Origin: Myxococcales bacterium
Lineage (GTDB): Bacteria > Desulfobacterota > Binatia > UTPRO1 > JBBIJE01
DNA: 64,000 nucleotides
Direction: 5' to 3'
Assembly (NCBI GenBank): GCA_037446155.1
Contig: JBBIJE010000008.1
Span: forward strand, 94,049 to 158,048
Below the pieces are notes generated by a model, which did no database searches, had not been told where the DNA came from, and saw nothing but the letters and a program-made list of their open reading frames with translations. How positions within the stretch are numbered: the stretch's first letter is position 1; every line of letters starts with the position of its first letter. Shown here piece after piece: positions 16,650 through 54,139 of this stretch. The position numbers were made by a program, and so were the translations under genes.

Positions 16650-17384
16650 ATGGCAAAGGGGATGAATCCGTCGGCCGACTGCGGTGGGCTCGCCGTGCGT
16701 TTAGCCGCGTGGGGAGTTCACGCCTACACGGCCGCGGGGGCGTTAGTGGCTTTCCTCGCTCTTGACGCCGTAATGGAGGGGGAGCCGGTTCGGGCTTTTT
16801 GGTGGCTTGCCGTGGCCCTCTTGATCGATAGCTCGGACGGCGCTCTCGCCAGACGTTTCAGAGTGAAGGAGGTAATTGCGCAATTTGACGGCTCGCGCCT
16901 GGATGACCTCGTCGATTACCTAAATTACGTTCTGGTTCCGGTGGCGCTCATGTATCGCCAGCGCCACTTCCCCGACGAAATCGCCCTTCTCGTTGCCGCG
17001 GCCGCGCTGCTCGCCAGCGCCTACGGTTTTTGCCGCAAGGAAGCCAAAACCGCCGATAACTTCTTTTTGGGTTTTCCCTCCTACTGGAATGTGGTGGCCT
17101 TTTACGTGTACGCGCTACGCATCGGCCAAGCCGCCGCAGGCGGCTGGGTGCTCGCGCTTTCCGCGCTGGTCCTGGTGCCCGTCCGTTTCGTTTATCCTTC
17201 GCGCACCCCTTTCTTCAGGAAGACAACCGTCACGCTCGGCGTGGTCTGGGGAGCGATCGTCCTCGGTTGTCTCTGGAAGCTACCCGCCGCACCCGTTTGG
17301 CTCGTTTGGCTCTCGCTCCTCTTTCCCGCTTACTACGCCTTGCTCTCGTTTGCGCTCGAGATCCGCCGCCGCCTGTGCCTCTAA
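16650..17384 (+). CDS. CDP-alcohol phosphatidyltransferase family protein (phosphatidylcholine-synthase-like).
   Basis: DG..AR...G...D...D signature, DSSDGALARRF...FDGSRLDDLVD, in a multi-TM protein of 244 aa. Confidence 0.5.
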   Translation: MAKGMNPSADCGGLAVRLAAWGVHAYTAAGALVAFLALDAVMEGEPVRAFWWLAVALLIDSSDGALARRFRVKEVIAQFDGSRLDDLVDYLNYVLVPVALMYRQRHFPDEIALLVAAAALLASAYGFCRKEAKTADNFFLGFPSYWNVVAFYVYALRIGQAAAGGWVLALSALVLVPVRFVYPSRTPFFRKTTVTLGVVWGAIVLGCLWKLPAAPVWLVWLSLLFPAYYALLSFALEIRRRLCL

Positions 17385-17468
17385 AGGGGGCCGGGCCCGC
17401 GGCGCACAAGGACCGCACCGCGAGGCTTGCGGCTTCTTGCGGGGGCCGGTCGGCGTCAAAGAGGCTCG

Positions 17469-18281
17469 CTAATGGACTTCGGCGCCCCCCGCCACGTTTA
17501 GTGCAATCCCCGTGATGTTATCCGACCGGCACAGAAAGACAGTGGTGTCCCCGATGTCCTCGGGGGGCTGATCCCGCTTCAAATACGTGTTGGCGGCAAC
17601 GAAGGATTCGTAAGCCTTGGCTTCTTCGACGTTGAGCCTCATGGCGACCGCGGCATCGAGCACCTTGTCCCACATGTGGGTCCTGAGAAACCCCGGGCAG
17701 ATGGCGTTTACCGTGATGTTCAGGGGGCCGAGCTCCTCCGCCAGCGCCTGCGTGAAACCTATGACCGCGAACTTGGAGGCGCAGTAAGCTGCCACTCCCG
17801 CCCGACCTGTCTTCCCCGCGATCGAGGAGATATTTATAATTCGTCCCTCGCCTTGGCGCGTGAGGGCGGGGATGGCCGCCTTGCAGCAGAGAAAGACCCC
17901 TTTCACGTTTACCGCCATCAGTCGGTCCCACAGCTCCTCGGGCATCATGGCGACCGGGATCGCGGCCACCACGCCGGCATTGTTGACCAGGATGTCGAGG
18001 CGCCCGAGTTTCTCTTCGGTTTCCCGGATCGTCCGCTCGACGTCGGCGTTCCTCGTGACATCGGCCGCAATCGCCACGCCTTGCACGCCGTGCTTCTCTA
18101 CCAGCGCAATGGTCTCGTTGAGTTCGCGCTCGCCCGAAAGCTCATAGGGGATGGAGGGATCCCCGCTGGATAGATCGGCAGCCGCGATGTGCACGCCTTC
18201 GGCGGCGAGCTTAAGCGCTATCGCCCGGCCTATCCCTCGGGCCGCACCCGTTACGAGAGCAACCTTTCCTCGGAGTTCCAT
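17469..18281 (-). CDS. SDR-family short-chain dehydrogenase/reductase.
   Basis: TGAARGIG cofactor motif, NNAG, and the S...YxxxK catalytic triad context. Start chosen at MELRGK, which has a GGAGGG RBS. Confidence 0.8.
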   Translation of the reverse strand: MELRGKVALVTGAARGIGRAIALKLAAEGVHIAAADLSSGDPSIPYELSGERELNETIALVEKHGVQGVAIAADVTRNADVERTIRETEEKLGRLDILVNNAGVVAAIPVAMMPEELWDRLMAVNVKGVFLCCKAAIPALTRQGEGRIINISSIAGKTGRAGVAAYCASKFAVIGFTQALAEELGPLNITVNAICPGFLRTHMWDKVLDAAVAMRLNVEEAKAYESFVAANTYLKRDQPPEDIGDTTVFLCRSDNITGIALNVAGGAEVH

Positions 18282-18445: not shown

Positions 18446-19957
18446 ATGGGGCAGACGATCGCCGCCTCGCCGCCGCGCTTTGGTGTGCGCGCGAAACTCA
18501 TCGTTGCCGCCGCCGCCGTCGTAGCCGCGATAAACGGAGTGGCCATGTGGCGGGCGCTCGCCAACGTCGAAGCGCAAGTTCTCGCCGATGCCAGGCAGCG
18601 CGTGCGCTTGGTGAATTACGCTGTCGAGCGAACCGCGGTAAATCTCATGCTCTCGGGAGAGCCGGATCGGTTGCAGATCTTTGTAAGCTCGCTCAAGGGC
18701 CACTCGGATATCGCAGACGTCAGGATTCTCGACCGAGAGGGAACGGTAGTCGCTTCCTCGGTGCCGAGTGAGCTCCGCACACGGCTTTCGCTGCGCGGTA
18801 TCGGCCTCGTGGTTCCGAGCGAGCGGCAGCGAATTATCGCCGAGCACGCCGGGGAGGGACACTTCTTGACTGTGGTAAGTCCCGTCCGCAACGAGCCGAT
18901 GTGCCACAGGTGTCACTCCGCCTCCGAGCGGTTCAACGGCACGTTTGTGGTAAGCATTTCCATCGACCCGCTGGTCTCGCGCGTTTCCGGGCTTCGTCGC
19001 TACCAGTTGGCTACGGGAACGGGTGCGGTGGCCGCCATGATCGGGGCGCTTTGGGTATTGATCTCGGTTATGGTTAGCCGGCCCATAAACCGCTTCATGA
19101 GCGCCATCTCGCAGGTTCGACGAGGCGATCTGTCGGCCGTCGTGGATGTAAGGCAGCGGGATGAGTTGGGGGCGCTCGCCCAGCATTTCAACGCTATGGT
19201 GGGGGAGATCCACCAGGCGCGCGAGCGGCTGGAAGAGTATCATCGCAGGGAAATCGCCCAAGCGGGCAGACTGGCGAGCTTAGGAGAGATGCTTTCGGGT
19301 CTGGCCCACGAGATCCGCAATCCGCTCGCGGGGATCATCGGGGCGATGGCCGTATTCGAACAGAGCATGGCCGAGGAGGACCCTCGCCGCGAGGTGGTTC
19401 GCGAGGTGGGCGAGCTGGTGCGGCGGTTGGGGAAGACGGCGGACGCGATCTTGACTTACGCCCGACCGTCGCCGCCGTCGTTCGAGCCGATCGACATCCA
19501 CCAACTTCTCGATTACTCGCTATTTCTGGTGGGCGCCGATAAGCCGCGCACTGGGGTTGAGATCGTGCGGGAATACGCGCCATCGCTTCCCGCGCTGGTC
19601 GGCGATCCCAAGCAACTGCAGCAGGTCTTCGTGAACCTGCTTCTCAACGCGCTTCAGGCTGTTGGCGAGCGCGGCCGGATCGTGGTTTCCACGGCGGACG
19701 GCATGGACGGAGGTGTGCGCGTTACCGTCGCCGACGATGGACCTGGGATCGACCCGGCCCACCGGGACTCGATTTTCGAGCCATTTTTCACGACCAAAGC
19801 CAATGGAACCGGGTTGGGCCTCGCGATAAGCCGCCGTCTCCTCGAGGCTCACGGCGCGACCATTTCGCTGGAGGACCGGCCGAAGGGGACCGCCTTTGTC
19901 GTTCATTTGCCGGGACCTCCTCCCAAGGCGGATCTTGGCCGCCAAGGACCGGCGTGA
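18446..19957 (+). CDS. Sensor histidine kinase with a periplasmic domain carrying one c-type haem-binding CxxCH motif.
   Basis: Topology: TM1 (about residues 16-36), a periplasmic domain of about 140 aa containing PMCHRCHS (nt 18902-18916), TM2, a HAMP-like region, the HisKA H-box [12 protein letters not shown], and HATPase_c motifs DDGPGI and GTGLGL. Confidence 0.8.
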
Positions 19958-20049: not shown

Positions 20050-20065
20050 TGGCATGAGCGTTGCA
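20050..20065 (+). promoter_or_regulatory. Sigma-54 (-24/-12) promoter upstream of the NtrC-type regulator gene.
   Basis: TGGCATGagcgTTGCA matches the TGGCACG-N4-TTGCA consensus, with GG and GC at the correct spacing. It lies about 220 bp upstream of the ATG at 20287. Confidence 0.55.
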
Positions 20066-20286
20066 GTGGCATACCCCAGACACCAGTTATGGACGGGCGC
20101 AGTGAATAACGCTGTTTTATATGGACTGATTCCGGGCCACCCAGCCGCCCGCATGGGTTTGGCCCTAGAGGTAATTCTCGGCCCCCATCCAGTAGCCTCG
20201 AGGGGGAAGCCTAGTTTGGAGGGCTATACCATTATCGGGCTCGGTGAGCCTGGCGCGGTGAGACGGAAACGCACGAGAGGGGTGCT

Positions 20287-21660
20287 ATGCAGGCGCGGGT
20301 GTTGGTAGTCGATGACGAGAAGCTCATTCGCTGGTCGCTCTCGCAACACCTGACCAAGCAGGGTTTCGAAGTATTTACCGCAGAAGGAGCCGAGGACGGG
20401 CTCAAGCTCTTTAGCGACGAGCTGCCCGAAGTCGTGATTCTCGATGTGCGGCTCAAGGGTGACGATGGTATCGAGGTCCTTCGGAAGATCCGCGAGGTGG
20501 ACGAGGATGTATCGGTTATAATGATTACCGCACATGCCGCCGTCGGCTCGGCCGTCGAGGCGATGAAGCTCGGCGCTTACGATTACATTACCAAGCCTTT
20601 CGAGCTCGACAAGGTCGAGCGTGTGGTGAACAAGGCGCTCGAAGCGGGCCGTCTAAAACGAGAGGTCGCCAGATTCAGGCGCGGACAGAAGCGCAAGTTC
20701 GGCTTCGAGAAGATCGTGGGAAGCTCCTACGCGATGCAGCGCGTTCTGGAGACGGTGGAGAAGCTGGTCGTGAGCGACTTCCATACGGTGTTGCTGCAGG
20801 GGCCCAGTGGATCGGGTAAGGATCTGGTAGCGCGCGCGCTTCATTTCAATAGCGCGCACGCCGACGCGCCCTTCGTGGACCTGAATTGCAGCGCCATTCC
20901 CGAGTCGCTGATAGAAAGCGAACTTTTCGGTTTCGAGAAGGGCGCGTTCACCGACGCCCGAGCCGCGAAGAAAGGGCTTTTCGAACTGGCGGAGGGCGGC
21001 TCGATCTTTCTCGACGAGATCAGCGACATGCCCCTAGGGGTGCAGAGCAAACTGCTCAAGGTGATCGAGAACCGTACGGTGCGCAGGCTGGGGGGACTTC
21101 GCGATATTCCGGTCGACACGCGCGTGATCGCCGCTACGAACCGCCGACTCGACGAGGAGGTAAAAAACAAACGGTTTCGCGAAGATCTCTTCTACCGGCT
21201 AAACGTCATAGCCATAACGCTTCCCTCGCTGGCCGAAAGGCGCGAGGACATTCCGGCCTTGGCACACCATTTCATCGAACAGTTCAATCGGGAGTTTCGC
21301 CGCTCGTTCACCGGCGTAGATCCCGAGGCGATGAACCTGCTTTGCGCTTACCCTTGGCCTGGTAACGTACGCGAGCTACGGAACGTGATCGAACGCGTGG
21401 TGATTTTGGAACAAGGACCGTTGATTCTCCCCGACCACTTGCCCCCCGAGGTCAGAAAGGGCGGCACCCCGGTGCATGACGGTGGCTTTAGATTGGCGCC
21501 GAGCGGGGTATCGCTCGAAGAAGTGGAGCGGAGTTTGGTTTTGCAGGCGATCGAGCTTTCGCACGGAAACCAAACCCATGCCGCCCAGCTTCTTCAGATA
21601 AGCCGCGACGCTTTGCGTTATCGGCTTCAGAAATACGGTCTCCTTCAAGGCAAGTCATAA
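20287..21660 (+). CDS. Sigma-54-dependent response regulator (NtrC/AtoC family enhancer-binding protein).
   Basis: Receiver domain (VVDDE...D54 context ILDVRL). AAA+ sigma-54 activator domain with Walker A GPSGSGKD, the GAFTDA motif (a GAFTGA variant) and ESELFGFEKGAF. C-terminal Fis-type HTH. Confidence 0.85.
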   Translation: MQARVLVVDDEKLIRWSLSQHLTKQGFEVFTAEGAEDGLKLFSDELPEVVILDVRLKGDDGIEVLRKIREVDEDVSVIMITAHAAVGSAVEAMKLGAYDYITKPFELDKVERVVNKALEAGRLKREVARFRRGQKRKFGFEKIVGSSYAMQRVLETVEKLVVSDFHTVLLQGPSGSGKDLVARALHFNSAHADAPFVDLNCSAIPESLIESELFGFEKGAFTDARAAKKGLFELAEGGSIFLDEISDMPLGVQSKLLKVIENRTVRRLGGLRDIPVDTRVIAATNRRLDEEVKNKRFREDLFYRLNVIAITLPSLAERREDIPALAHHFIEQFNREFRRSFTGVDPEAMNLLCAYPWPGNVRELRNVIERVVILEQGPLILPDHLPPEVRKGGTPVHDGGFRLAPSGVSLEEVERSLVLQAIELSHGNQTHAAQLLQISRDALRYRLQKYGLLQGKS

Positions 21661-21878
21661 GGCAGTGCAGGAACCTATGAGTCGCCACTCGCTGCGTATT
21701 ATTACGCATTGGGTGAGGGAGATTCCGCAGCGACCGGCGGTTCCGCAGTGCTGGCGCGGTGAGAAAAGGGGGGGCACTGTTCCGCACCCGGGCAAGCGGT
21801 GGCGAAGGGCCCGGCGCCGCTCGCCTCCCGCGGGGGCGGCGCCTGAGACCGGGGGGACCCAGCGCACCCCGATGCGGC

Positions 21879-30714: not shown

Positions 30715-30822
30715 GGCTCTCCGGGCCGCGGCATTTCTCGCAGAGCTTAACTCTAGGCCCATCGTCGCGGCTCTATTGCCCACGGGAGGGGTTTTATCTC
30801 GGCATCCTGCGCAGCGACGGGC

Positions 30823-30859
30823 TGCGAGAATCTCCGCAGCCGCTGCGCGAGAATCCGCA
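30823..30859 (+). promoter_or_regulatory. Tandem 16-bp dyad elements TGCG-N8-CGCA (candidate enhancer or UAS for a sigma-54 activator).
   Basis: TGCGAGAATCTCCGCA (30823-30838) and TGCGCGAGAATCCGCA (30844-30859). Their centres are 21 bp apart, about 75-110 bp upstream of the sigma-54 promoter at 30933. Confidence 0.45.
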
Positions 30860-30932
30860 ATCCAAGGGCGCGAGTTTCGGGCGCCGAGGCGGTAACATAT
30901 GGAGAAAGCAGACGTTTTTTTATCCTGGCATG

Positions 30933-30948
30933 TGGCATGAGAGTTGCT
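30933..30948 (+). promoter_or_regulatory. Sigma-54 (-24/-12) promoter upstream of tetrahaem cytochrome paralog B.
   Basis: TGGCATgagagTTGCT has correct GG/GC spacing. It lies 60 bp upstream of the ATG at 31009. Confidence 0.55.
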
Positions 30949-31008
30949 CGAAGGGCGTGCCAGGGGCGCCGGTGGCGTGACCCAAATTTCAGGAAGAGGA
31001 GGAAAGCT

Positions 31009-31815
31009 ATGAACGTTAGAAAAGGGTGCCACGTAACAGTAGCCTTGTGCGCGGGGCTTGCGCTGGCGCTCGCTCCTAAGCTCGTGTGGGCCCAGGCCGC
31101 ACCGGGTGCGGGAATCGAAGATAGCCATCACGATTTCACAGCCGGGCACGCGACCGCCTCGACGACCGATGCCGGAGCGGGGATTTGCATCTTTTGCCAT
31201 GTACAGCACCGGCAGGGGGCTCCAGCGACTGCCAGCACGAGGCTTCTTTGGAACCACAAGCTCTCGTCGTTGAGCTACTCATGGAGCGACGTTACCAAGA
31301 CGGTCGGTGGGACGGATTTGCCGACCAACCTTGGGACTTGGGCCGGGCCTTCGAAGAACTGCCTCTCTTGCCACGACGGGACGGTCGCGGTGGGTGATGT
31401 GTACCGTACCGCCGCATTCCCCGCGACGTCGTTCACGGTCACCGGGACCCGGATCACCGATGGGAAGATCAGCGCAAGCTTTCTCCTGATCCCGAGCGCC
31501 ACTGGCGATCTCAAGGGTAACCACCCGGTCGGCGTGCCCTATCCCTTCGGCGGGGCGCAGAGCACGTACAATGGGATCACCACCGGCTCGGGCGTAGCCA
31601 CCGGTGATTACAAAGCCGATCCGCAAAACGTCCGCATCTACACCGACGTGGGCAACGATTACCAGATCGGTGGAACCACCGGGCAGGCCGGAATCGAGTG
31701 CGGAAGCTGCCACGACCCGCACAACAGGGACGTCAAGGAAGATCCGCTTCTTCGCGATTTCTTCACGCTCGGGAGCGGTTCTCCGAGCGCGATCTGCCTA
31801 GACTGCCACTTCTAG
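31009..31815 (+). CDS. Tetrahaem c-type cytochrome (doubled-CxxCH type), paralog B.
   Basis: RBS AGGAAGAGGAGGAAAGCT-ATG. Haem motifs CIFCHVQH, CLSCHDGT, CGSCHDPHN and CLDCHF. It is collinear with paralog A along its whole length, including the shared NCLSCHDGTVAVGDV block. Confidence 0.75.
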   Translation: MNVRKGCHVTVALCAGLALALAPKLVWAQAAPGAGIEDSHHDFTAGHATASTTDAGAGICIFCHVQHRQGAPATASTRLLWNHKLSSLSYSWSDVTKTVGGTDLPTNLGTWAGPSKNCLSCHDGTVAVGDVYRTAAFPATSFTVTGTRITDGKISASFLLIPSATGDLKGNHPVGVPYPFGGAQSTYNGITTGSGVATGDYKADPQNVRIYTDVGNDYQIGGTTGQAGIECGSCHDPHNRDVKEDPLLRDFFTLGSGSPSAICLDCHF

Positions 31816-31863
31816 TTGGCAGGCTGGCCGCGCGGCGCGTGCTAGCCGCTCGGCTGAGGAATG

Positions 31864-31897
31864 AACCCGGGGAGCGATAGGCTCCCCGGGTTTTTTT
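31864..31897 (+). terminator. Rho-independent terminator.
   Basis: cccggggagc-gata-ggctccccggg forms a perfect 10-bp GC stem and is followed by TTTTTTT. It lies 49 bp after the paralog B stop. Confidence 0.75.
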
Positions 31898-33141: not shown

Positions 33142-33179
33142 CCAGCCCGGGCTGCGAGAAAATCCGCAACGCGCTGCGT
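33142..33179 (+). promoter_or_regulatory. Dyad element TGCG-N8-CGCA with a degenerate second copy 22 bp downstream (candidate UAS).
   Basis: TGCGAGAAAATCCGCA (33142-33157) and TGCGTGATTCCCCGCT (33164-33179). They lie about 130-165 bp upstream of the sigma-54 promoter at 33308. Confidence 0.4.
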
Positions 33180-33307
33180 GATTCCCCGCTCGACTGGGGT
33201 GGCTCTTTTCCCGCGGAATCCTCGGTTCGTCGATTGTGCGACTGGTGAGACGCACAAAATCAGGGACTTAGATCGGGAGACGGCGCTTTGTGGGCTGCGA
33301 TGCGCTT

Positions 33308-33323
33308 CGGCATGCGCCTTGCT
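33308..33323 (+). promoter_or_regulatory. Sigma-54 (-24/-12) promoter upstream of the giant multihaem cytochrome gene.
   Basis: cGGCATGcgccTTGCT has correct GG/GC spacing. It lies 93 bp upstream of the ATG at 33416 and is nearly identical to the promoter at 42973. Confidence 0.5.
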
Positions 33324-33415: not shown

Positions 33416-36400
33416 ATGCGAGGACAAGGTAGGACGACATTGGTCATCGGCGCCGTGGGTTTGCTGGCGCTATTTTTTGCGTCGGGTAAAGCCCTTGCCG
33501 ATCCGAGTTATTTCACTTCGCGGTGCGCGCTTTGCCATGCGGACGATACGCCGACTTGTGATGGGTGTCACGGGCACGTGGTTGGGGGCCTCAAGGCTGT
33601 GACCGACAAACAGCAATATTTACCTGGTGAGACGGTTACCGTGACTTTTCAGTCCTGGAATTGGGGCGGTTGGGTTAGGGCGGTCTTGTATGACGAGACG
33701 ATGACGGAAGTGGATCGGGTAACGGGTCCCACGGGGACTGGGGACGATGGTAGTGGGGATCCGAGTCTGTGGTTTCCGGTGGTTTTGAGTGCGCCTGCAC
33801 CTATGGCATCGGGGTTTTACACGTGGAGCGTTGGGTGGTTCGGGAGTCCTGGGACGCCAGGAGGTGCGTACCCGCACATCCAGGATGTGGTTTCCACGAA
33901 CCAGTTCGAGGTGACGACCTCCGGTAGCACCACTACCACGACCAGCACTACTACGACGAGCACCGCGAGCACGACGACGAGCACTGCAAGCACGACGACC
34001 AGCACGGCGACAACGACCTCGACCACGACGACTACGACATTGCCGCCTCCCGCTGCGGAGCTGGATCATTTCTTGTGTTACGCGACGAAGCTCAAGAAGC
34101 TGATTTCGGTAGATCTGAGCGACCAGTTCGATTCAGGAACCTACACCGGCAACGTAGCCAAACTCTTTTGCGCGCCCGCGGACAAGAATGGCGAGGGGAT
34201 CTCCGATCCGGATACGCATCTTCTGTCCTACAAAATCAAGGGCTTGCATGTGGGCCGGACGAATGTGGAGGTTTTGGATCAGTTCGGGACGTACGTCTAC
34301 GACACGAAGAAAACCGATAGCCTGATGATTCCGACGGCAAAGAGCATAGCTCCGGCTCCTCCGCCCGGCCCGCCGAATCCAGCGAGTTTGGTGGATCATT
34401 ACCGGTGTTTGAAGGTGAAGACGAGCGCTGGGACGCCCAAGTTTCCGAAGGACAAGAGCGTTCAGGTTGTGGATCAGTTCGGGGCCGCGCGGACCTTCTT
34501 CGTGAAGAAGCCCTCTCGGTTGTGTTTGCCTGTGGACAAGAACGGGGAGGGGATCAAGAACCCGGACATGCACCTCATGTGTTACAAGGGCAAGACGTCG
34601 GTTAGAACGTCTGCCGTTGGAGTGCAGATCAACAACCAGTTCGGTGCGGATACGATCGCGCTAAAGAAGGAGGCAGAGCTTTGCCTGCCAGCTCGAAAGA
34701 ACCCGCGGAAGGTAAATCCGGGAGACCCGGTGTTGGCGCCGGCTGCCGGGTACATCGGGTCTCCGACCTGCATGGAGTGCCACGAGGAAAAGTACTGGGG
34801 CTGGATCGACACGCTCCATCGGTTGCCGATTCGTGACACCAACGAGCCTGGGCTTACGGGCAAGGCTATCGTGGCGGACAGCGACGGTGACGGGACGGAC
34901 GACTTCAAGGAGGGAACGAATCTCGCAACCGCGCCAAACGCCACCCCATTTGCCGTGTACGGCTCCAACGCGCCGGTATTAGGGTTCGATCCCGGCCGGG
35001 TGGATCCGAACAGCGGAGCGATGGGGGTTTACACTATCACGATCGGGCCCATCACTTACGACATAACCCGCACGCACGGCGGAAACGGGTACTGGAAGCA
35101 ACGCTATCAGACCAGGATAGGTGACAGTTACTACTACCTGCCGGTTCAGTACAACGAGACCGCTAACGCATACGTCGTTTACAATGGCGGCGACTGGTAC
35201 GACGGCTCGAACAATCCGCGCTACACCAATCCTGCTACACTCGAGGCCGACATCGACAAGAGTCGTTCCTACGAGCGCAACTGTGCGGGATGTCACAACA
35301 CCGGCGTCGACGTCGAGGTGGATGGCGCCGGGCAGTGGGTGACAGGGTACGTGGAGCTCGGGATCGGCTGCGAGGACTGCCACGGGCCGGGTGAAACTCA
35401 TGCGGCGAGCATGGATCCCGCCGACATCATAAACCCGGGCAAGTTCGGGCCGTGCGACGGCGACCTGGTTGCGGGCGACGGCAACAAGGACGGTACCTGC
35501 AGGGAATCCGGCGTGCCTTGCGATGCGGTGGATTTACCATTCCCGGTGAACTCTCCTGATTGCCTGGCTTCTGCGAACGAAGTCTGCGGCCAGTGCCACG
35601 GCCGTGGGGCGAGCACCCTGGTGATGAACGGCAAGACGTTGGGCTACCCGGCCAAAGACGACGGTGCCGGCGGCTTCCAGGGGTTCGTACCGGGCAATAT
35701 CCTGGCAGACTTCTACGCCTTCACGACCTCGACCGGGGACTACTGGGGTTTGAACCAGGTGTTTGGCGGGGAAGGGCACACGGTTCCATCGAGCCCGAAC
35801 TCGTTCGTAGCCTCCAAGAGCCATCACCAACAGTACCTCGACTGGCTCATCAGCCCGCACGCGCCCGATAACTTCTACGACCCGACGTGCTTTAGCTGCC
35901 ACGACTCGCACGGAAGTGGTAACGAGCACAACATCGTGGAAAGCCTCGAGGAAGACGGGGTCGAGATTCCGACCAAGGTGGATGACAATAGTCTCTGCTT
36001 GGCTTGTCACGCGACTCACGGCCCCTTTGCGGGCGTGACCAAGGAGCAGGTGGCCGAGATCGGCTCGGGGACCACGCCGCCCGAGATCGTTGACGCCGTC
36101 CTCGACCACATGGCCGAGGAGGCCGGGATGGGTGGAGCCTACGATCCACTGGGATCCGGTGTGGGCCGCTGCACGAGCTGCCATCTGCCGCAGCTTGCGA
36201 AGTCGGCGGTAGGGGGCACGGATGCCGAGGGACACACCACGGGCGACGTTACCACTCACACCTTCACGATCATCTGGCCTAGCGTGAACGAGCGCCTGAC
36301 CGGAAGCGACAAGAGCATGAGCAACTCCTGTACCGGCTGCCACAGCACGGGCTCGCCACTCGGCATGGACGAGGAGCTCTTCGAGTGGGCCAAATCGGGC

Positions 36401-37330
36401 CACGCCGACTTGACCGCACGGCACTGGCGGTATGCGGCGGGCGAGGAGCGGGCGGCTTGCGTGCGGTGTCACTCGGGCAACGGGTTCGTCGATTTCCTCG
36501 CGGGGATCCCCGAGGGGGATCGGCGCACCGAGCCCAAGATGGTCACCTGCTACGCTTGTCACGACGGGACACCGGGCGACTTGCACCCGGTGCGCGCGGT
36601 GGCTTCGGTGACCTTCCCGTCGGGGTCGGTTATCACGGCGGGTGACGATGCCAAGATCTGCATGAACTGCCACCAGGGCAGGCAGAGCAAGAGCAGTGTG
36701 GACACGTACCTGCTGACCCACCCCGATCCGAGCCCGATCAACTTCGGCTCCGTCAACCCGCATTACTTCGCGGCTGCGGCGGTCTTCTTCGGCTCCTCGG
36801 TTAGCGGTATGTACCAGTACGACGGCAAGACCTATCTCGGTGAGTCACCCCACCGGCCGTTCAAGGGTTACTGTCTCGACTGCCACTTGAGCGAGACGCC
36901 CGGTAGCGACGACGTGGGCGGGCACACGATGGCGATGGTCGCCGACGGCCAGGAGAACACGGCAGGTTGCGGTTGCCACGCTTCTCAACCTGGCTTGGAT
37001 GCCTACAGGAACCCGTTTGGCGGAGCCGTGGACTACGACGGCGATGGGAACACCTCCGAGGGCATCAAGGGTGAGATCCAGACCATGATGGACGATCTCA
37101 TAGCGGCTCTGAACGCTGCCGGCATCACCTGCACCGACTCGTATCCGTACTGCTCGGGCTGGAACGGCACGACCGAGCAGCAGAAGAGCCAGCTCAAGGC
37201 CGCGTACAACTACCGGTTCTTGAAGACCGAGCATGGCGCTTATGCCCACAACGGGCTGTACGCGCTCCAGATCTTGCACGACTCGTATGCAGATTTGACG
37301 GGAGGCCCGCACGCAGGTGTAAGGCCCTAG
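33416..37330 (+). CDS. Giant secreted multidomain c-type cytochrome of 1304 aa. Order: N-terminal dihaem module, Thr/Ser-rich linker, four copies of a cysteine-containing repeat, then a C-terminal multihaem domain of about 12 haems, for about 14 CxxCH in total.
   Basis: RBS GAGGAGGAGG. Signal peptide LVIGAVGLLALFFASGKALA. CxxCH motifs are CALCH, CDGCH, CMECH, CAGCH, CEDCH, CGQCH, CFSCH, CLACH, CTSCH, CTGCH, CVRCH, CYACH, CMNCH and CLDCH. The linker is about 40 residues of S/T. Confidence 0.8.
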   Translation: MRGQGRTTLVIGAVGLLALFFASGKALADPSYFTSRCALCHADDTPTCDGCHGHVVGGLKAVTDKQQYLPGETVTVTFQSWNWGGWVRAVLYDETMTEVDRVTGPTGTGDDGSGDPSLWFPVVLSAPAPMASGFYTWSVGWFGSPGTPGGAYPHIQDVVSTNQFEVTTSGSTTTTTSTTTTSTASTTTSTASTTTSTATTTSTTTTTTLPPPAAELDHFLCYATKLKKLISVDLSDQFDSGTYTGNVAKLFCAPADKNGEGISDPDTHLLSYKIKGLHVGRTNVEVLDQFGTYVYDTKKTDSLMIPTAKSIAPAPPPGPPNPASLVDHYRCLKVKTSAGTPKFPKDKSVQVVDQFGAARTFFVKKPSRLCLPVDKNGEGIKNPDMHLMCYKGKTSVRTSAVGVQINNQFGADTIALKKEAELCLPARKNPRKVNPGDPVLAPAAGYIGSPTCMECHEEKYWGWIDTLHRLPIRDTNEPGLTGKAIVADSDGDGTDDFKEGTNLATAPNATPFAVYGSNAPVLGFDPGRVDPNSGAMGVYTITIGPITYDITRTHGGNGYWKQRYQTRIGDSYYYLPVQYNETANAYVVYNGGDWYDGSNNPRYTNPATLEADIDKSRSYERNCAGCHNTGVDVEVDGAGQWVTGYVELGIGCEDCHGPGETHAASMDPADIINPGKFGPCDGDLVAGDGNKDGTCRESGVPCDAVDLPFPVNSPDCLASANEVCGQCHGRGASTLVMNGKTLGYPAKDDGAGGFQGFVPGNILADFYAFTTSTGDYWGLNQVFGGEGHTVPSSPNSFVASKSHHQQYLDWLISPHAPDNFYDPTCFSCHDSHGSGNEHNIVESLEEDGVEIPTKVDDNSLCLACHATHGPFAGVTKEQVAEIGSGTTPPEIVDAVLDHMAEEAGMGGAYDPLGSGVGRCTSCHLPQLAKSAVGGTDAEGHTTGDVTTHTFTIIWPSVNERLTGSDKSMSNSCTGCHSTGSPLGMDEELFEWAKSGHADLTARHWRYAAGEERAACVRCHSGNGFVDFLAGIPEGDRRTEPKMVTCYACHDGTPGDLHPVRAVASVTFPSGSVITAGDDAKICMNCHQGRQSKSSVDTYLLTHPDPSPINFGSVNPHYFAAAAVFFGSSVSGMYQYDGKTYLGESPHRPFKGYCLDCHLSETPGSDDVGGHTMAMVADGQENTAGCGCHASQPGLDAYRNPFGGAVDYDGDGNTSEGIKGEIQTMMDDLIAALNAAGITCTDSYPYCSGWNGTTEQQKSQLKAAYNYRFLKTEHGAYAHNGLYALQILHDSYADLTGGPHAGVRP
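33915..34045 (+). repeat. Low-complexity ACC/ACG/AGC codon repeat encoding the Thr/Ser-rich linker inside the giant cytochrome gene.
   Basis: About 130 nt of imperfect triplet repeats (accaccacgaccagcactactacgacgagcacc...) encoding TSGSTTTTTSTTTTSTASTTTSTASTTTSTATTTSTTTTTT. Confidence 0.5.
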
Positions 37331-37388
37331 CTAAGCTACCTCTGCCCCCTTACGCCCCACGCAAAAGGGGGTTTGCACCGCTCGGTAG

Positions 37389-37420
37389 GACGGGCCCCGG
37401 AATCCCCTCCGGGGTCCGTC
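37389..37420 (+). terminator. Long GC-rich hairpin after the giant cytochrome gene with no clear U-tract (possible terminator).
   Basis: gacgggccccgga-atcccc-tccggggtccgtc forms a stem of about 13 bp with one wobble pair. It lies 59 bp after the stop. Confidence 0.35.
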
Positions 37421-37491
37421 CCCCTTCCTAAAGAGTAGCGCCGGAGACCGTTGCGCAGGAAAACGCAAGCTTTTCGAAGCCGGCGGCGCGC

Positions 37492-42847: not shown

Positions 42848-42884
42848 TGCGGAAAAGCGCGCACCGCGTGAGAATTGCCGCGGT
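42848..42884 (+). promoter_or_regulatory. Dyad element TGCG-N8-CGCA with a degenerate GAGAAT-containing copy about 21 bp downstream (candidate UAS).
   Basis: TGCGGAAAAGCGCGCA (42848-42863), then CGCGTGAGAATTGCCGCG. They lie about 90-125 bp upstream of the sigma-54 promoter at 42973. Confidence 0.4.
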
Positions 42885-42972
42885 CATTGTTGTGGCGGCC
42901 TTCGTGTGTAACTGCGCCTCGTTTAAAGGCCTTCGCTAGGCCCCGCGGGTGTGGTGGCGCTGCAATTGCTGA

Positions 42973-42988
42973 CGGCATGCGGCTTGCA
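42973..42988 (+). promoter_or_regulatory. Sigma-54 (-24/-12) promoter upstream of the haem/PKD/NHL paralog operon.
   Basis: cGGCATGcggcTTGCA has correct spacing. It lies about 55 bp upstream of the TTG start at 43043. Confidence 0.55.
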
Positions 42989-43042: not shown

Positions 43043-45517
43043 TTGTGCCGGAAGCTTGCTAGCGCTGCGATCGTCGGTCTGTTTTTCCTTGGCCTTGCCG
43101 GGGGAAGCGCACTTGCCGACCCGAGCTACTTCGCCATCCGCTGCGCCCTTTGCCACTATGACGACAACCCGACCTGCTCCGGCTGCCATCAGCACGTTCA
43201 GGGCGGCCTCGTGGCGAGGACCGACAAGACTCAGTACTGGCCCGGCGAAACCGTAAGAGTGACGCTTTCGTCGTGGGACTGGCCGGGTTGGGTGCGGGCG
43301 ATCCTTTACGACCAGAGTGGGCGCGAGCTCACGCGCGTAGGCGGGGCCACCGGAACCGGCGACGACGGAAGCGGCAATCCCGCGCTCGAGCTCCCCGTGG
43401 TCTTGGTTGCCCGCGCTCCCCTGACGGCGGGGTCTTACAGGTGGACCGTGGCGTGGTTTGGCAGCGGAGGCTCTCCCGGCAACGAGTTTCCCCATCTGGA
43501 AGAGCCGGTACCGACGAACTCCTTCGACGTCAGCGGCAGTCCCCCCAGTACGACGACCACCACCACGTCCTCCACTACTACGACCGTTCCAAGCACCACG
43601 ACGACCACCACCACCACGACCACCACCACGGCGACCGCGACCACGACCAGCACTACCGCGAGCACTACGACCACGAGCACCTCCTCCACCACCTCCACGA
43701 CGCTTCCGGGCCCCCTCGACGATTTCCTCTGTTACAAGGTGCGGGCTAGGCAGGACGTCAGCGTAAATTTGAGCGATCAGTTCGATTCGGGCCAATATCT
43801 GGGGAGGGTGGCAAAGCTTCTCTGCGCGCCGGCTGACAGCGGCTCGGGTATATCGCACCCGCAAACGCACCTTATGTCTTATCGGATCCAGGGGCCCCAC
43901 CTGCGGCGAACGGGCATCGAGGTGGTGAACCGTTTTGGCACCTATTACTTCGACACCAAGAAGACCTACAGCCTCATGGTGCCTACGGCAAAGAGCCTGA
44001 TTCCCGACCCGCCGCCGGGGCCGCCTGACGCCGGCGCCGTGGACCACTATCGGTGTTTGACTATAAGGACAACGACGGGCACGCCCGAATTTCCAAATGG
44101 GCTTACGATTGCCGTAACCGACCAGTTCGGAACCCACAACTTCGCGATCAAGAAGCCGCGCACCCTCTGCGTGCCCACCGACAAGAATGGAGAGGGAATC
44201 GAGCGGCCACAGGCATACCTTACCTGTTACAAGGGAAAGGCTGACCCGAGGGTGTCCGTTGCAGGGGTCCAAGTCAACAATCAGCTTGGGCAAGCCGTGT
44301 TGAACCTGAGCAAAGAGATAGAGCTTTGCGTGGCCTCTCAGCCGCCACCTGGACCAACCACGACTACGACGACCACGACGAGCAGCACGACCAGCACCAC
44401 GGTCACGCCCACTAGCACCACTACCACCACGACCACCGTGCCGGGCAACGAGCCGCCGACGATCGCCGTTAGCGCCGATCGCACTGAAGGGCCCATAGCC
44501 TTGAGCGTTCGGTTTAGCGCTTCGGCTACCGACCCCGATGGAGAGGTCGTTGCGATCCACTGGGATTTCGATGACGGCACGGTGGGGAGCGGGGCTTCGC
44601 TTTCTCACGTATTTCACGTGGCCGGCGGCTACAGAGTTACCGCCACGGCAACCGACAACCGGGGAGGGCAGGCACGGGCTACGATCCCAATAGCGGCAAG
44701 GCCGCTCGCGGGCGGGTCCGTGGATCAGCCGTATCCGACCCGCCTGGCGCTCGGACCCCAGGGGAAGCTCTACGTAACCGATGCCTCCGCCGGGTCGGTC
44801 TTCGTTTACGATTCTAGTTTGAATCCTGCGGGCGAAATCGCTGGGATCGATCTTCCCTTGGGTGTGGCGGTCGACAGCCAGGGGCGAATTTACGTGGGTA
44901 GCGACGGGGCCGACTCGGTCGAGGTCTACGACGGCGCCGGGGTCAAGCTTTACAGCATCGATGCGGGCGGGATCTCGATGCCGAACGACATTGTCATAGA
45001 TACCGCGGACATTCTCTACGTCGTCGATAGCCGGGCGGATACGGTGCGAGTGTATAACGCCGCAGGCACGTGGCTTAGAGACATCGGGGGCCCGGGCGAC
45101 GGTGCGGGAGAGTTGCGCTTTCCCGCCGCGGTGGCCATCGGCGGCGAGCCGCCGGAGCTTTACGTAGCCGATCAGGGCCACTCGCTCGTTCAGGTTTTCG
45201 ATCCCGGCGGAACGTTCCTGCGCAGTTTCGGCGGGGCGGTGGGGGCGTTTTCACCGCAATGGAAGGGCCTCTTCGTGAGGATGCAGAGCCTTTCGCTGGA
45301 TGGACGCGCAGCCTTGCAAGTGGCTGATACCTACATGGATCGGGTGCAGTTTCTCGATCGCACGACGGGTGAGTTTCGCGGCTACTACGGCGAGTTCGGC
45401 GGTGGCGCCGGGCAGCTCAATCTACCCCTCGACCTGGTGGTTACTGGGGACAACCGAGCCATCGTGGCGGACGCGGAAAACCACCGGATCCAGTGGTTCG
45501 ATCTCGAGGTGCCCTAA
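43043..45517 (+). CDS. Secreted paralog of the giant cytochrome. Same N-terminal dihaem module, Thr-rich linker and four cysteine-containing repeats, followed by a second Thr-rich linker, a PKD domain and a C-terminal NHL beta-propeller.
   Basis: TTG start 10 nt after AGGAGG. Signal peptide ...LASAAIVGLFFLGLAGGSALA. Haem motifs CALCH and CSGCH. The PKD domain shows IHWDFDDGT. Repeated NHL blades LYVTDASAGSVFVYD and LYVVDSRADTVRVYN. It is collinear with 33416..37330 over the first 430 aa or so. Confidence 0.75.
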   Translation: MCRKLASAAIVGLFFLGLAGGSALADPSYFAIRCALCHYDDNPTCSGCHQHVQGGLVARTDKTQYWPGETVRVTLSSWDWPGWVRAILYDQSGRELTRVGGATGTGDDGSGNPALELPVVLVARAPLTAGSYRWTVAWFGSGGSPGNEFPHLEEPVPTNSFDVSGSPPSTTTTTTSSTTTTVPSTTTTTTTTTTTTATATTTSTTASTTTTSTSSTTSTTLPGPLDDFLCYKVRARQDVSVNLSDQFDSGQYLGRVAKLLCAPADSGSGISHPQTHLMSYRIQGPHLRRTGIEVVNRFGTYYFDTKKTYSLMVPTAKSLIPDPPPGPPDAGAVDHYRCLTIRTTTGTPEFPNGLTIAVTDQFGTHNFAIKKPRTLCVPTDKNGEGIERPQAYLTCYKGKADPRVSVAGVQVNNQLGQAVLNLSKEIELCVASQPPPGPTTTTTTTTSSTTSTTVTPTSTTTTTTTVPGNEPPTIAVSADRTEGPIALSVRFSASATDPDGEVVAIHWDFDDGTVGSGASLSHVFHVAGGYRVTATATDNRGGQARATIPIAARPLAGGSVDQPYPTRLALGPQGKLYVTDASAGSVFVYDSSLNPAGEIAGIDLPLGVAVDSQGRIYVGSDGADSVEVYDGAGVKLYSIDAGGISMPNDIVIDTADILYVVDSRADTVRVYNAAGTWLRDIGGPGDGAGELRFPAAVAIGGEPPELYVADQGHSLVQVFDPGGTFLRSFGGAVGAFSPQWKGLFVRMQSLSLDGRAALQVADTYMDRVQFLDRTTGEFRGYYGEFGGGAGQLNLPLDLVVTGDNRAIVADAENHRIQWFDLEVP
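43549..43705 (+). repeat. Low-complexity ACC/ACG codon repeat encoding a Thr/Ser-rich linker; a second copy lies at 44355-44441.
   Basis: Encodes TTTTTSSTTTTVPSTTTTTTTTTTTTATATTTSTTASTTTTSTSSTTSTT. The complementary strand gives artefactual poly-Val ORFs (43435..43698 and 44338..44580). Confidence 0.5.
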
Positions 45518-45529
45518 AGGCTTTGAAAG

Positions 45530-47380
45530 ATGAAAAGCAGCGTGATCAAGGGAACGGGCCTGCTCTTTGCCGTGGCGGTCCTGTGCCTGCCTTCGAGATC
45601 GCAGGCGCTCGATCCCCCTCACAATGCGAGCAACCACATCGACTGTAACTCTTGTCACGCCGTGGTCCCCGCCTTCATCCCGCTTCGCCAAAGGCAGGAG
45701 AGCGCCTGCAAGACCTGTCACAACCCGACCGGTCAGGCATCCACCCGTTCGACTGCGCTTCGGAACCACGTGGTAAACGGGGGGAGCAAGATCGTGGATT
45801 GCGGATCCTGTCATGATCCGCACGGTCCCTCGATCACGACGGATCCCCATACCGGGCGGAGAGCGACCAACCTTTGGTTGATCCGCTGGGATACGGCTAA
45901 GTACGTTGCGGGGGCCCTGGAGCCCGCGATCTTTCACGAGCGGCCGGCGCATTTCGCGTTCGGCGACGCCAATCCGCCTTGGAACGGCGCATGCCAGACC
46001 TGCCACGCGCAGACGAGCCATCATCGTAACGACGCCACATCCGACCACAGCCACCAGTTGGGAGATGACTGCACGCAATGCCATCTTCACGGAAGCGGCT
46101 TTTTGCCCGCCGGGGGTGGCGGGGACTGCACGGGCTGCCACAGCGGGCCGCAGGACAACGGGGACGGAGTTCCGCCGGGCGGTCGGCGCGCTGTGGTTTC
46201 CGAGTTTCCGACCGGAGACGAGGGCCTACACGCCCATTACGGGGCGGAGCTTGGAAGCGACGACTGCGTCATCTGCCACAGCCAGGATACGCACATGGAC
46301 GGATACGTGGACCTGATCGATCCCGACGACGGCAGCATGTACCGCTTCAAGCTCAGGGGAGATCTCTTATCCGATCCTGATCTCTCCGATTTCTGCGCTC
46401 ACTGCCACGACGCCGATGGCGCCGCGCGGCTGGCCACTCCGCTGGATCCCTTCGGGAACGGAAACGCACCGCCCGATGTCGCCACGCGCTTCCAGGGAAC
46501 CCTCAGGTGGGACGAGTGGTACGGTGACTTCTGCTTCGGCGAGGAAGGTACGCTGCGCCAGGTCAACAGTCACCATGACATCAGCGACTCCGATCAGGCC
46601 TGGAGCGGAGCGAAGATCGAATGCCTAAGCTGCCACGGGGCGCACAACCCTTCGGCCGCTCGCCCCGTCGTCGATCCCTTCGACACCGCGACTCCGTGGA
46701 CCGGAAAGGACAACGGATTTTGCTTGAGCTGCCACGCCGGCGGAAACGGACCCGCCGATCCGGACTTCCCCGCCGGTGTCGTCGGCCCGGCAGTTCCTCT
46801 GCGCGGCCTCGATACTTGCTACTACACGGGCGGGCCCTGGTGGGTCGATTATACCTGGACACACGCGGCGCACGGTCTCGACTCCAAGCGCGCTTGGTCG
46901 GGTTACTCGGGCGCGCCGGGATACGAACTGCCCTGTCTCGGGTGTCACGACCCGCACGGGTCCTATACGCCCGCCAACCCGGCCGGGAATCCTTATATGA
47001 TCCGGGACTTCGTCGATGGGACGCAATTCGTGGACGACGGGACGCGCACCGGAGGCTTCACCGGTCCCCCCTGGAACACGTTCGGTACCTCGGGCCCGGT
47101 GGTCGTGACGATAAGCGGCACCGACGTGGATTGGGGAAGCTCGCAGAGTCTGTGTGGCCGCTGCCATGCAAGTTGGCTTGCGGCCTACGACTGGCACGCG
47201 TACTGTACGGGTTGTCAAACTTGCCACGGTCACGGCCAGGCGTGGGGCAACGCCGACTGGGTCGGTTTTGACGACGACACCCCGTGCCCGGTAGGGGGGA
47301 GCGGCATTGCTGGGGGCACCGGATCGGGCCGGCTGCTCTTCGACCGCAAGAACCCGCCAATTCATTTCGGGGCGCAGTAA
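45530..47380 (+). CDS. Secreted multihaem c-type cytochrome with 13 CxxCH motifs.
   Basis: Signal peptide LLFAVAVLCLPSRSQA. Haem motifs CNSCH, CKTCH, CGSCH, CQTCH, CTQCH, CTGCH, CVICH, CAHCH, CLSCH, CLSCH, CLGCH, CGRCH and CQTCH. It starts 12 bp after the upstream stop, so it is in the same operon. Confidence 0.8.
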   Translation: MKSSVIKGTGLLFAVAVLCLPSRSQALDPPHNASNHIDCNSCHAVVPAFIPLRQRQESACKTCHNPTGQASTRSTALRNHVVNGGSKIVDCGSCHDPHGPSITTDPHTGRRATNLWLIRWDTAKYVAGALEPAIFHERPAHFAFGDANPPWNGACQTCHAQTSHHRNDATSDHSHQLGDDCTQCHLHGSGFLPAGGGGDCTGCHSGPQDNGDGVPPGGRRAVVSEFPTGDEGLHAHYGAELGSDDCVICHSQDTHMDGYVDLIDPDDGSMYRFKLRGDLLSDPDLSDFCAHCHDADGAARLATPLDPFGNGNAPPDVATRFQGTLRWDEWYGDFCFGEEGTLRQVNSHHDISDSDQAWSGAKIECLSCHGAHNPSAARPVVDPFDTATPWTGKDNGFCLSCHAGGNGPADPDFPAGVVGPAVPLRGLDTCYYTGGPWWVDYTWTHAAHGLDSKRAWSGYSGAPGYELPCLGCHDPHGSYTPANPAGNPYMIRDFVDGTQFVDDGTRTGGFTGPPWNTFGTSGPVVVTISGTDVDWGSSQSLCGRCHASWLAAYDWHAYCTGCQTCHGHGQAWGNADWVGFDDDTPCPVGGSGIAGGTGSGRLLFDRKNPPIHFGAQ

Positions 47381-53509: not shown

Positions 53510-54139
53510 CTCGCTGGCAGTAGCGCCAAGATTGGCCCAACCTGAGTCAAGAAAGGGTCGCCAATCGCTTGGAAAATCGACGGCACGGCAATTGCTCTGG
53601 AGTTTTCGAAGGGCGCAGGGTCACATTTTCCCGGGGACCCCCCGGGGACTTAACCGACGTGGGTAGGCGCGCCAGAAGGATAAAAGATGTCGCGGCGGGC
53701 AATGATGATTGCGGGTCGCTGGTGTTGTGTGGCACTGGCGAGCTCGATCCTAGCCTTCCTTTTCGCAAGCCTTGCGCTGCACACATGGCGCAGCCGAGGG
53801 TTGAGCCGGCCTTCCGGGAGCGCGGCGGCTTTGGGGGCGCAGGACTCGCTCGGCCCTGGCCTCTTGCACAACGCGGGCGCCTGTACCGCTTCGGAAGGCT
53901 GCGGGCGTTAGCCGCTCAGATGCGCGCAGGGAACCAGCCGACCCGCGCCCTGTCGCGTTCCTGCCTCCCGTTCGGACATCCTTTGCAGCCCATACCAGTG
54001 GCGCAATCGGTAGCGAGCGTCTTTCGTGCATCTCGCGCGAGCGGAGCCAGGTTGCAGTCGTTCGGTTTGGATTTCGCACCGATAGGTCCTAAGCGACCGC
54101 AGCCCGTAGCTCCCCTCGAGTCGTTCGACTATAATTTTA

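Follow-up and report, generated by a model that had tools for sequence, protein, structure and literature searches.

Tandem TGCG-N8-CGCA dyads as candidate enhancers for sigma-54-type promoters of secreted multihaem cytochrome genes

Why should one short inverted repeat recur upstream of several secreted cytochrome genes? The question arises in a 64,000-nucleotide stretch of contig JBBIJE010000008.1 (assembly GCA_037446155.1), called the window here, in which a 16-bp dyad, TGCG-N8-CGCA, stands in tandem upstream of sequences that resemble sigma-54 promoters. A preliminary description of this DNA had taken the dyads for enhancers of the type used by NtrC-family proteins. We arrive at a similar view and consider it likely that the tandem dyads are enhancers of a sigma-54 regulon of secreted multihaem cytochromes, under the control of a haem-containing sensor kinase and an NtrC-type response regulator. 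This reading is supported by the arrangement, position, conservation and gene neighbourhood of the sites, and it is from such sequence features that we infer the binding protein, the signal sensed, activation itself and the dependence on sigma-54. In its general part, that the dyads are activator or enhancer sites for sigma-54 promoters, we are quite confident; that the regulator encoded at 20287-21660 is their binder we hold to be probable, with less assurance. The sites and the elements related to them are the following, where matches and mismatches refer to TGCG-N8-CGCA.

21693 to 21708, no strand: strong dyad TGCGTATTATTACGCA, exact match, 33 nt 3' of the response regulator stop codon
21714 to 21729, no strand: degenerate partner TGAGGGAGATTCCGCA, one mismatch, 21 bp from the 21693 site
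30727 to 30742, no strand: possible third, remote site, dyad with one mismatch (reverse complement TGCGAGAAATGCCGCG)
30823 to 30838, no strand: distal dyad TGCGAGAATCTCCGCA, weaker site, exact match, 5' of the cytochrome gene at 31009
30844 to 30859, no strand: proximal dyad TGCGCGAGAATCCGCA, strong site, exact match, centre 83 bp 5' of the -24 GG
33153 to 33168, no strand: strong dyad TGCGAGAAAATCCGCA, exact match, 5' of the 33416 gene
33175 to 33190, no strand: degenerate partner TGCGTGATTCCCCGCT, one mismatch, in tandem with 33153 and 22 bp away
33234 to 33257, no strand: perfect palindrome with 7-bp arms, TTGTGCG-N10-CGCACAA, between the 33153/33175 pair and the promoter at 33308
42848 to 42863, no strand: strong dyad TGCGGAAAAGCGCGCA, exact match, 5' of the 43043 operon
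42866 to 42881, no strand: doubtful second element GCGTGAGAATTGCCGC, not fitting the N8 spacing

The two exact matches TGCGAGAATCTCCGCA and TGCGCGAGAATCCGCA lie 21 bp apart, at 110 and 74 bp 5' of the promoter TGGCATGAGAGTTGCT at 30933, which bears out both the tandem spacing and the distance of about 75-110 bp given in the preliminary description. Upstream of the promoter at 33308 the dyad that had been placed at 33142 is present, with a degenerate partner 22 bp away, but it starts at 33153; at 42848 the strong site is where it had been put, whereas the second copy claimed there is doubtful, as it does not fit N8 and is lost in a close relative. The pair at 21693/21714, which lies between convergent genes, is a fourth locus that had not been noticed before. 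The recurring pattern is thus one strong and one weak dyad two helical turns apart, a spacing that places the members of a pair on one face of the helix. In the three tandem pairs every site except 21714 has GC directly 5', giving GCTGCG, and the 30823 site is a 20-bp palindrome with perfect arms, GCTGCG-N8-CGCAGC. Sites or pairs stand 75-155 bp 5' of a same-strand sigma-54 match at 30933, 33308 and 42973, with centres 83/104, 127/149 and 119 bp, respectively, 5' of the -24 GG. Farther upstream of 31009, the 30727 element is a minus-strand match to the half-site TGCGRRAAW, and its equivalent in the relative L101 is TGCGGAAAATAGGCCG; this slender evidence makes it at most a possible third, remote site. 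The 33234-33257 palindrome may be an additional site of the type known for the regulators DctD and KguR (below).

Could such sites have arisen by chance? The bare 16-mer is not enriched in the window, where it occurs six times with 2.49 expected, a count equalled or exceeded in 9 of 100 shuffles; when one mismatch is permitted the figures are 65 and 57, respectively. Tandem pairs, defined by a spacing of 20-23 bp and at most one mismatch in total, behave differently: the window holds three against 0.017 expected, a number reached in 0 of 1000 dinucleotide-preserving shuffles, and pairs so defined are absent from 1.24 Mb of unrelated loci. (Loci L001-L080, from the regulator search, the best of them 54% identical among the matches listed, were used as background only.) Thus the prospect raised earlier, that the dyad occurs simply at chance frequency, holds within the window for the bare 16-mer and fails for the tandem arrangement. 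Since the motif was defined after inspection of the data, the tandem-pair p-values are indicative only. Other ways of finding sites are less useful: the core-only motifs GAGAATC and TGCGRRAAW are common in coding DNA and are not diagnostic, and a de novo search for enriched 9-mers over intergenic regions was swamped by GC-rich noise. Kinase genes bear a close resemblance to the proximal dyad GCGCGAGAATCCGCAATCC where they encode the H-box AHEIRNP (GCGCACGAAATCCGCAATCC; L014:6620, L019:9142, L020:9331 and window 19306), so motif scans give them as false positives; matches to a looser pattern at regulator-adjacent loci in Acidobacteriota were rejected because they are this same coding sequence.

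If the dyads are enhancers, they should stand in a regular relation to sigma-54 promoters, and four such promoters were found near the cytochrome genes.

20050 to 20065, plus strand: sigma-54-type promoter TGGCATGAGCGTTGCA, between the kinase and regulator genes
30933 to 30948, plus strand: sigma-54-type promoter TGGCATGAGAGTTGCT, one mismatch to TGGCACGNNNNTTGCW, a run of seven T directly 5'
33308 to 33323, plus strand: sigma-54-type promoter CGGCATGCGCCTTGCT, two mismatches, GG and GC in place
42973 to 42988, plus strand: sigma-54-type promoter CGGCATGCGGCTTGCA, consensus match, TGGCATGCGGCTTGC in the L100 ortholog

Matches to the consensus TGGCACGNNNNTTGCW with at most two mismatches were counted, and a promoter was called where -24 GG and -12 GC, exactly 10 nt apart, lie in a context near TGGCAC-N5-TTGCW. 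All four sequences have this form, which is conserved in the relatives L086, L100, L101 and L084; the consensus promoters named earlier at 30933, 33308 and 42973 therefore stand. Sigma-54 matches in the cytochrome island's intergenic DNA are confined to 20050, 30933, 33308 and 42955/42973, and three of these four promoter loci have a dyad site or pair 5' on the same strand, 20050 being the exception. The 30933 promoter is identical in L086 and reads TGGCATGAGGGTTGCT in L101, and the T run abutting it is conserved. Although the spacer around it has diverged, the 20050 promoter is kept both in L086, as TGGCATGAGCATTGC, and in L084/L085, the 86% relative, as TGGCATGCGGATTGC; thus the activator gene is probably served by a sigma-54 promoter of its own. 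At 42955, 18 bp 5' of the 42973 promoter, there is another full match, TGGCGCTGCAATTGCT; -24 elements are likewise doubled at 30926-30948 (compare 42955-42988), where the 31009 promoter reads cTGGCATgTGGCATgagagTTGC, the same in L086 and not in L101. About 35 nt after the start expected from the 20050 promoter there is a hairpin followed by a T-run (20099-20115, GCAGTGAATAACGCTGT TTTATAT), and a leader of about 170 nt separates this region from the activator start codon; the hairpin region, which could be an attenuator or a small RNA, is kept in L086 and not in the 86% relative. Small open reading frames are called differently in 20050-20286, with 54 residues in L086 and 77 in L084.

The genes that would be connected by these sites encode a two-component system and its putative targets.

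18446 to 19957, plus strand: sensor histidine kinase gene (PF21563, HAMP, HisKA and HATPase_c domains)
20287 to 21660, plus strand: NtrC-family response regulator gene (Pfam receiver, Sigma54_activat and HTH_8, a Fis-type helix-turn-helix)
31009 to 31815, plus strand: secreted tetrahaem cytochrome gene (Pfam Paired_CXXCH_1, four CXXCH, signal peptide)
33416 to 37330, plus strand: gene for a 1304-residue secreted protein with 14 CXXCH and DUF7450 repeats (Pfam and motif count; signal peptide)
43043 to 47380, plus strand: two-gene operon, 43043-45517 (TTG start) followed by 45530-47380

Each of the three dyad-associated promoters does precede secreted cytochrome genes, as first proposed, with 4, 14 and 2+13 CXXCH motifs and signal peptides. 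The 31009 gene is taken to be monocistronic because a strong terminator, a 13-bp stem with a T-run, follows it at 31863-31893. In the operon, the secreted product of 43043-45517 has two N-terminal CXXCH motifs with DUF7450, PKD and NHL domains, and 45530-47380 encodes a cytochrome with 13 CXXCH. The N-terminal 430 residues of the 33416 protein are 56% identical to the 43043 protein; this common module (33416-34720 and 43043-44340 in the window) comprises two CXXCH motifs, a long Thr/Ser-rich linker and DUF7450 repeats. The 31009 cytochrome gene has a paralog at 29902, whose ortholog in L086 (19974-20429) is called at only 151 residues and is possibly disrupted.

The kinase carries the periplasmic haem-c sensor domain PF21563, of the type found in Geobacter methyl-accepting chemotaxis proteins, with a CHRCH motif that aligns with an invariant CxxCH in four orthologs, in agreement with the earlier statement that the regulator is paired with a haem-containing kinase. 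The regulator has clear Sigma54_activat (E = 2e-65) and HTH_8 (E = 1e-13) domains, and its sigma-54-contact loop reads GAFTDA in place of GAFTGA, a variant that is listed as functional (PMC4641369). A tblastn search with its AAA+ domain found no second sigma-54 AAA+ domain in the window, so that it is indeed the only sigma-54 activator there. Its best NCBIfam matches are the AtoC, NtrC and NtrX models, all far below their cut-offs and with no assignment to DctD, and its closest solved structures are of the Aquifex NtrC1/NtrC4 type.

We therefore turn to conservation of the sites in relatives, named here by the identity of their activators: L086 and L100 (98%; JGI 3300010938), L101 (97%; SRR24236065), and L084 and L085 (86%; short contigs). 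Their non-coding DNA is far more diverged than their proteins, and the footprints rest on two or three close genomes. Upstream of the 31009 ortholog, promoter and 5' untranslated region are conserved in L086 and L101. The proximal dyad (30844) is TGCGTGATAATCCGCA in both, with 8 of 8 arm positions and 14 of 16 columns invariant, and the spacer around it is only 36-46% invariant. The distal dyad (30823) is TGAGAGAATTCCCGCG in L086 and TGCGAGAATACCCCCA in L101; 11 of its 16 columns are invariant, its arms vary and its GAGAAT is kept in both. Over the whole dyad-pair block 29 of 37 columns are invariant (78%) against 69 of 161 in the flank (43%; Fisher p = 7.5e-5). Most of the spacer 3' of the activator gene can no longer be aligned in L086 and L101, yet the 21693/21714 pair persists: the 21693 dyad is TGCGTATTTTCGCGCA in L086 and TGCGTAATTTTACGCA in L101, with invariant arms and four of eight spacer columns varying, and its 21714 partner is TGGGTGATATGCCGCA and TGCGCATTATTTCACA, respectively. 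Here the pair block has 23 of 37 invariant columns (62%) against 51 of 182 (28%; p = 1.0e-4). In L100 the 42848 dyad is TGCGGAAAAATTCGCA, with both arms kept and three changes in the spacer. As a control, a lone dyad at 37452 is not conserved, both of its arms being mutated in L100. The 33153/33175 pair and the 33234 palindrome fall outside the footprinting, since L086 and L100 are separated there by a gap of 2.2 kb; a metagenome-contig search with the N-terminal domain of the 33416 protein and a later protein search gave mostly distant DUF7450 proteins and yielded no ortholog of the 33153 region.

Which part of the dyad is under constraint? In the three strong dyads none of 24 arm positions varies, against 9 of 24 in the spacers (p = 8e-4), so it is the arms that are constrained and not the GAGAAnATC core that had been proposed as the shared element, which changes in the best sites of relatives. 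The TGCG and CGCA arms are presumably the recognised part of the site.

A similar association exists farther away. Activators 58-60% identical are encoded in Nitrospirota metagenome-assembled genomes (L088-L090; one member of the cluster is Nitrospirae bacterium RBG_16_64_22), where they are paired with a PF21563 kinase with the invariant CxxCH and belong to multihaem cytochrome clusters. L089 and L090 each have a dyad, TGCGCGTGAAATCCCGCA or TGCGCGTGAAATCTCGCA (TGCGCGTGAAATCyCGCA), with the same arms and N10 spacing; it follows the activator-cytochrome operon at a distance of 33 nt and precedes a conserved sigma-54-like sequence GGTACGCGAATTGC by about 100 bp, and the dyad and GGTACGCGAATTGC are conserved islands in the alignment of the two. 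In relatives of this type a promoter GGGCACCGAGATTGCA precedes the whole kinase and activator operon, with a conserved GGTGCGCGATTCsACGTyGCGG about 100 bp 5' of it. Since the 60% relatives keep the regulator, cytochromes, promoters and similar dyads, the link of this regulator family with cytochromes, a sigma-54 promoter and a dyad resembling TGCG...(G)AAATC...CGCA is judged, from these comparisons, to be older than the window's own lineage, with the change in spacing as a caveat. Homologs of the 31009 product at 73-77% identity (L081, L083 and L102) are encoded inside NHL-cytochrome operons without a promoter of their own and gave no footprint. In L083 (72% G+C) there are sigma-54-like promoters, TGGCACATCACGTGC and TGGCACGTCCGATGC, at the NHL-cytochrome operon and a DUF7450 gene (8100-8392 and 17300-17473); three GAGAAT elements without TGCG/CGCA arms lie 5' of the NHL-gene promoter, and these promoters may be a diverged version of the same regulon.

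From these findings we propose the following scheme. The periplasmic c-haem domain of the kinase would sense redox state or a haem ligand, and the kinase would then phosphorylate the regulator. Regulator dimers would bind the high-affinity dyad through the Fis-type helix-turn-helix, and cooperative binding to the weaker dyad two helical turns off would nucleate the AAA+ hexamer. By looping of the DNA the hexamer would contact sigma-54 RNA polymerase in the closed complex at 30933, 33308 or 42973, and its hydrolysis of ATP would open the promoter. The 21693/21714 pair together with the 20050 promoter suggests positive autoregulation; alternatively, that pair might be the retained enhancer of an ancestral layout in which regulator gene, enhancer, promoter and cytochromes followed one another. 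A bolder form of the scheme, in which kinase and activator are a redox- or haem-ligand-responsive master switch for secreted cytochromes, probably ones of extracellular electron transfer, and that is autoregulated by the downstream enhancer acting over 1.6 kb on its own promoter, we put forward only tentatively.

A number of observations weigh against our enhancer interpretation. The motif was defined post hoc, there are few close relatives, and the 33308 and 42973 promoters, like the genes 33416 and 43043 that they precede, are paralogous, so that these two loci are not fully independent. The weaker sites are poorly kept, with both arms of 30823 lost in L086 and the 42866 element lost in L100 (CCGTGGGGGTGGCCGC). 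Site and promoter do not always go together: the 20050 promoter has no clear upstream dyad, the 21693 pair, between convergent genes, has no recognisable sigma-54 promoter within 200 bp, and the distant cytochrome homologs in L081 and L102 have no such promoter or dyad. Arm spacing differs among lineages (N8 here, N10 in L089/L090 and N6 in DctD sites), which is awkward for one rigid dimer geometry. Finally, the DNA between enhancer and promoter commonly, though not obligatorily, has an IHF site or an intrinsic bend, and here no convincing IHF site was recognised in it (AATCAGGGACTTA near 33258 comes nearest to WATCAANNNNTTR, with one mismatch, and all others have at least two), and rpoN was not found within the window. 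Nevertheless, position, phasing and footprints uphold in silico the NtrC-type arrangement that had been proposed.

Chief among the other explanations, and in our judgement an unlikely one, is that the dyads are true enhancer or operator sites bound by some other protein, whose gene would lie beyond the window and which could be a further sigma-54 activator or else a dimeric repressor or co-regulator, with the neighbouring regulator acting elsewhere. Our view is limited to 64 kb, genomes of this kind are rich in NtrC-family paralogs (the relatives search gave hundreds at the least), the regulator's 20050 promoter is itself without an obvious dyad, and likeness between DNA-binding domains is no reliable guide to likeness of their motifs (PMC4641369); all of this leaves room for such a protein. 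The neighbouring regulator is favoured, on the other hand, by the conserved dyad pair 33 nt from its gene, by the 60% relatives, in which the kinase-regulator pair is likewise accompanied by a comparable dyad and promoter, and by the lack of any other activator or suitable dimeric regulator near the sites. A LysR gene lies at 38846, but regulators of that family are expected to recognise sites of another kind. On sequence grounds we rejected readings of the dyads as Fur, IHF or LysR-type sites.

It is much less probable still that the dyads reflect only shared ancestry or composition, as GC-rich palindromes left behind when promoter regions were duplicated together with the cytochrome genes that are now paralogs. 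In its favour, G+C content is 63% in this genome, the exact 16-mer shows no enrichment, and paralogy extends to the 33416/43043 genes with their promoters and to 31009/29902. The tandem arrangement, however, is far beyond chance, and between the paralogs the upstream DNA can be aligned at the promoter and the dyads but nowhere else; at 56% protein identity such restricted alignment argues for constraint, as selection predicts. Moreover, the 21693 pair adjoins no paralogous gene, and between genomes the arms are conserved while spacers vary and the lone 37452 dyad decays. Nor do we give more than the slightest credence to the idea that the inverted repeats act as RNA, in hairpins, terminators or attenuators of the upstream genes (the 29902 cytochrome and the regulator). 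GGCTGCG...CGCAGCC at 30820-30841 can form a 7-bp stem, the fold in the window has z = -2.15, and the 30823 and 21693 regions both lie 3' of a stop codon. Against this, the dyads have no T-run, called terminator or Rfam match; folds differ between orthologs, those in L086 being no better than shuffles (z = 0.20 and -0.55); the changes in L086 break the pairing and are not compensatory; and the 33153 and 42848 sites are not 3' of a co-directional gene end that would need a terminator. Taken together, we favour the reading of the dyads as enhancers bound by the neighbouring regulator.

Several further features were seen along the way. In two independent assemblies of the 86% relative, L084 and L085, the contig breaks off 26-27 nt past the activator stop codon, shortly before the expected dyad pair, which hints at a repeat or a strain-variable junction. 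The 5' untranslated region of the 31009 gene (30953-31008) has 48 of 56 columns invariant in three genomes, where the neighbouring spacer has 36-46%, which points to a leader with some function besides ribosome binding. The 33416 gene and an acyl-CoA dehydrogenase gene converge on about 110 bp (37331-37440) that are nearly 100% identical in L100, far above other intergenic DNA; the segment has a strong hairpin (GGACGGGCCCCGG...CCGGGGTCCGTCC) and no Rfam match, and could be a bidirectional terminator or a structured element of unknown kind. A perfect sigma-54 consensus, TGGCACGGCGGTTGCT, occurs on the minus strand at 9564-9579, in or just 5' of a NERD-domain open reading frame (8807-9631); since no TGCG-N8-CGCA dyads are near it, a different activator would be needed there. 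Another good match, CGGCACGGCAATTGCT, lies at 53581, 5' of a MutS2 gene.

What would such a regulon mean? Multihaem cytochromes serve metal respiration and extracellular electron transfer, and their regulation is poorly known outside Geobacter, Shewanella and Desulfovibrio. The locus described here would be a compact circuit in an uncultivated lineage, in which a haem sensor kinase and a sigma-54 activator act through a 16-bp dyad on three or more target promoters, and it yields a site rule (TGCG-N8-CGCA in tandem, two turns apart, 80-150 bp 5' of GG-N10-GC) that could serve for regulon prediction in the full genome and in relatives. If the master-switch scheme is true, and the lineage is taken as Nitrospirota-related, this would be the first defined cytochrome cis-regulatory code outside the Proteobacteria and Desulfobacterota models, and one directly usable to predict the regulon in metagenomes. 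The layout is credibly that of a classical NtrC/DctD enhancer and its mechanism would not be surprising; because the mechanism is classical, the value lies in annotation and hypothesis rather than in new transcription biology.

How close are the known systems? The NtrC enhancer at glnAp2 resembles the present sites in having two dyads on one helix face, 100-140 bp 5' of a -24/-12 promoter. NtrC dimers bind there cooperatively and nucleate the active oligomer, and that enhancer can act at a distance and also from downstream. Its consensus, TGCACC-N5-GGTGCA, with sites three turns apart, and its nitrogen regulon are unlike what we find here.

Nearer in sequence are the sites of DctD and KguR, so the motif, whose core had at first not been assigned to a known regulator, is not without likeness: it closely resembles the DctD site TGTGCGgaaatCCGCACA and the proposed KguR site. 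Rhizobium DctD binds tandem sites whose affinities differ 50-100-fold (PMC11077940, citing Ledebur and Nixon 1992 and Scholl and Nixon 1996). The upstream activating sequence of Rhizobium/Sinorhizobium dctA is thus alike in having tandem strong and weak dyads for an NtrC-family regulator upstream of a sigma-54 promoter, and TGTGCGgaaatCCGCACA and TGCGAGAAAATCCGCA have in common the TGCG/CGCA arms and an A-rich GAAAT(C) centre. It differs in having N6 between TGCG and CGCA, in the outer TG/CA of its arms (GC/GC here, the 33234 palindrome excepted), and in serving a dicarboxylate transporter with a DctB-type sensor rather than cytochromes with a haem-c sensor kinase. For KguS/KguR, an NtrC-family two-component system of uropathogenic E. 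coli, the site TGTGCG-N8-CGCACA was proposed from sequence, with gel shifts on whole fragments (PMC3694859); its TGCG-N8-CGCA core and spacing are identical to ours, and its targets are for alpha-ketoglutarate utilisation. The longer DctD/KguR arms TGTGCG(G)/(C)CGCACA are absent from our tandem sites, which have only the inner TGCG/CGCA flanked by GC. Only the 33234-33257 palindrome, with TTGTGCG/CGCACAA, has arms equal to the DctD/KguR TGTGCG/CGCACA (PMC11077940, PMC3694859), and it has N10 spacing like the 60% relatives. No named equivalog, DctD and KguR included, can be assigned to our regulator.

In gene content, the closest parallels are BccR (GSU0598), a sigma-54 activator that controls the cbcBA operon of Geobacter sulfurreducens (doi 10.1101/2021.04.15.440034), and DVU3142, predicted to drive the ohc operon of Desulfovibrio vulgaris (PMC4641369). 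As here, a sigma-54 activator gene adjoins cytochrome genes with a -24/-12 promoter; in contrast, their targets are inner-membrane bc-type or octahaem complexes divergently transcribed from the activator, and no haem-c sensor kinase partner has been described. The sensor domains of GSU0582 and GSU0935 belong to the same PF21563 family and keep the CxxCH (PMC3460858, PMC8396549), but those proteins are chemotaxis receptors, whereas here the domain is predicted to feed a histidine kinase and a sigma-54 activator. Unlike the BccR and DVU3142 systems, the present locus has several dispersed secreted-cytochrome promoters with one type of site.

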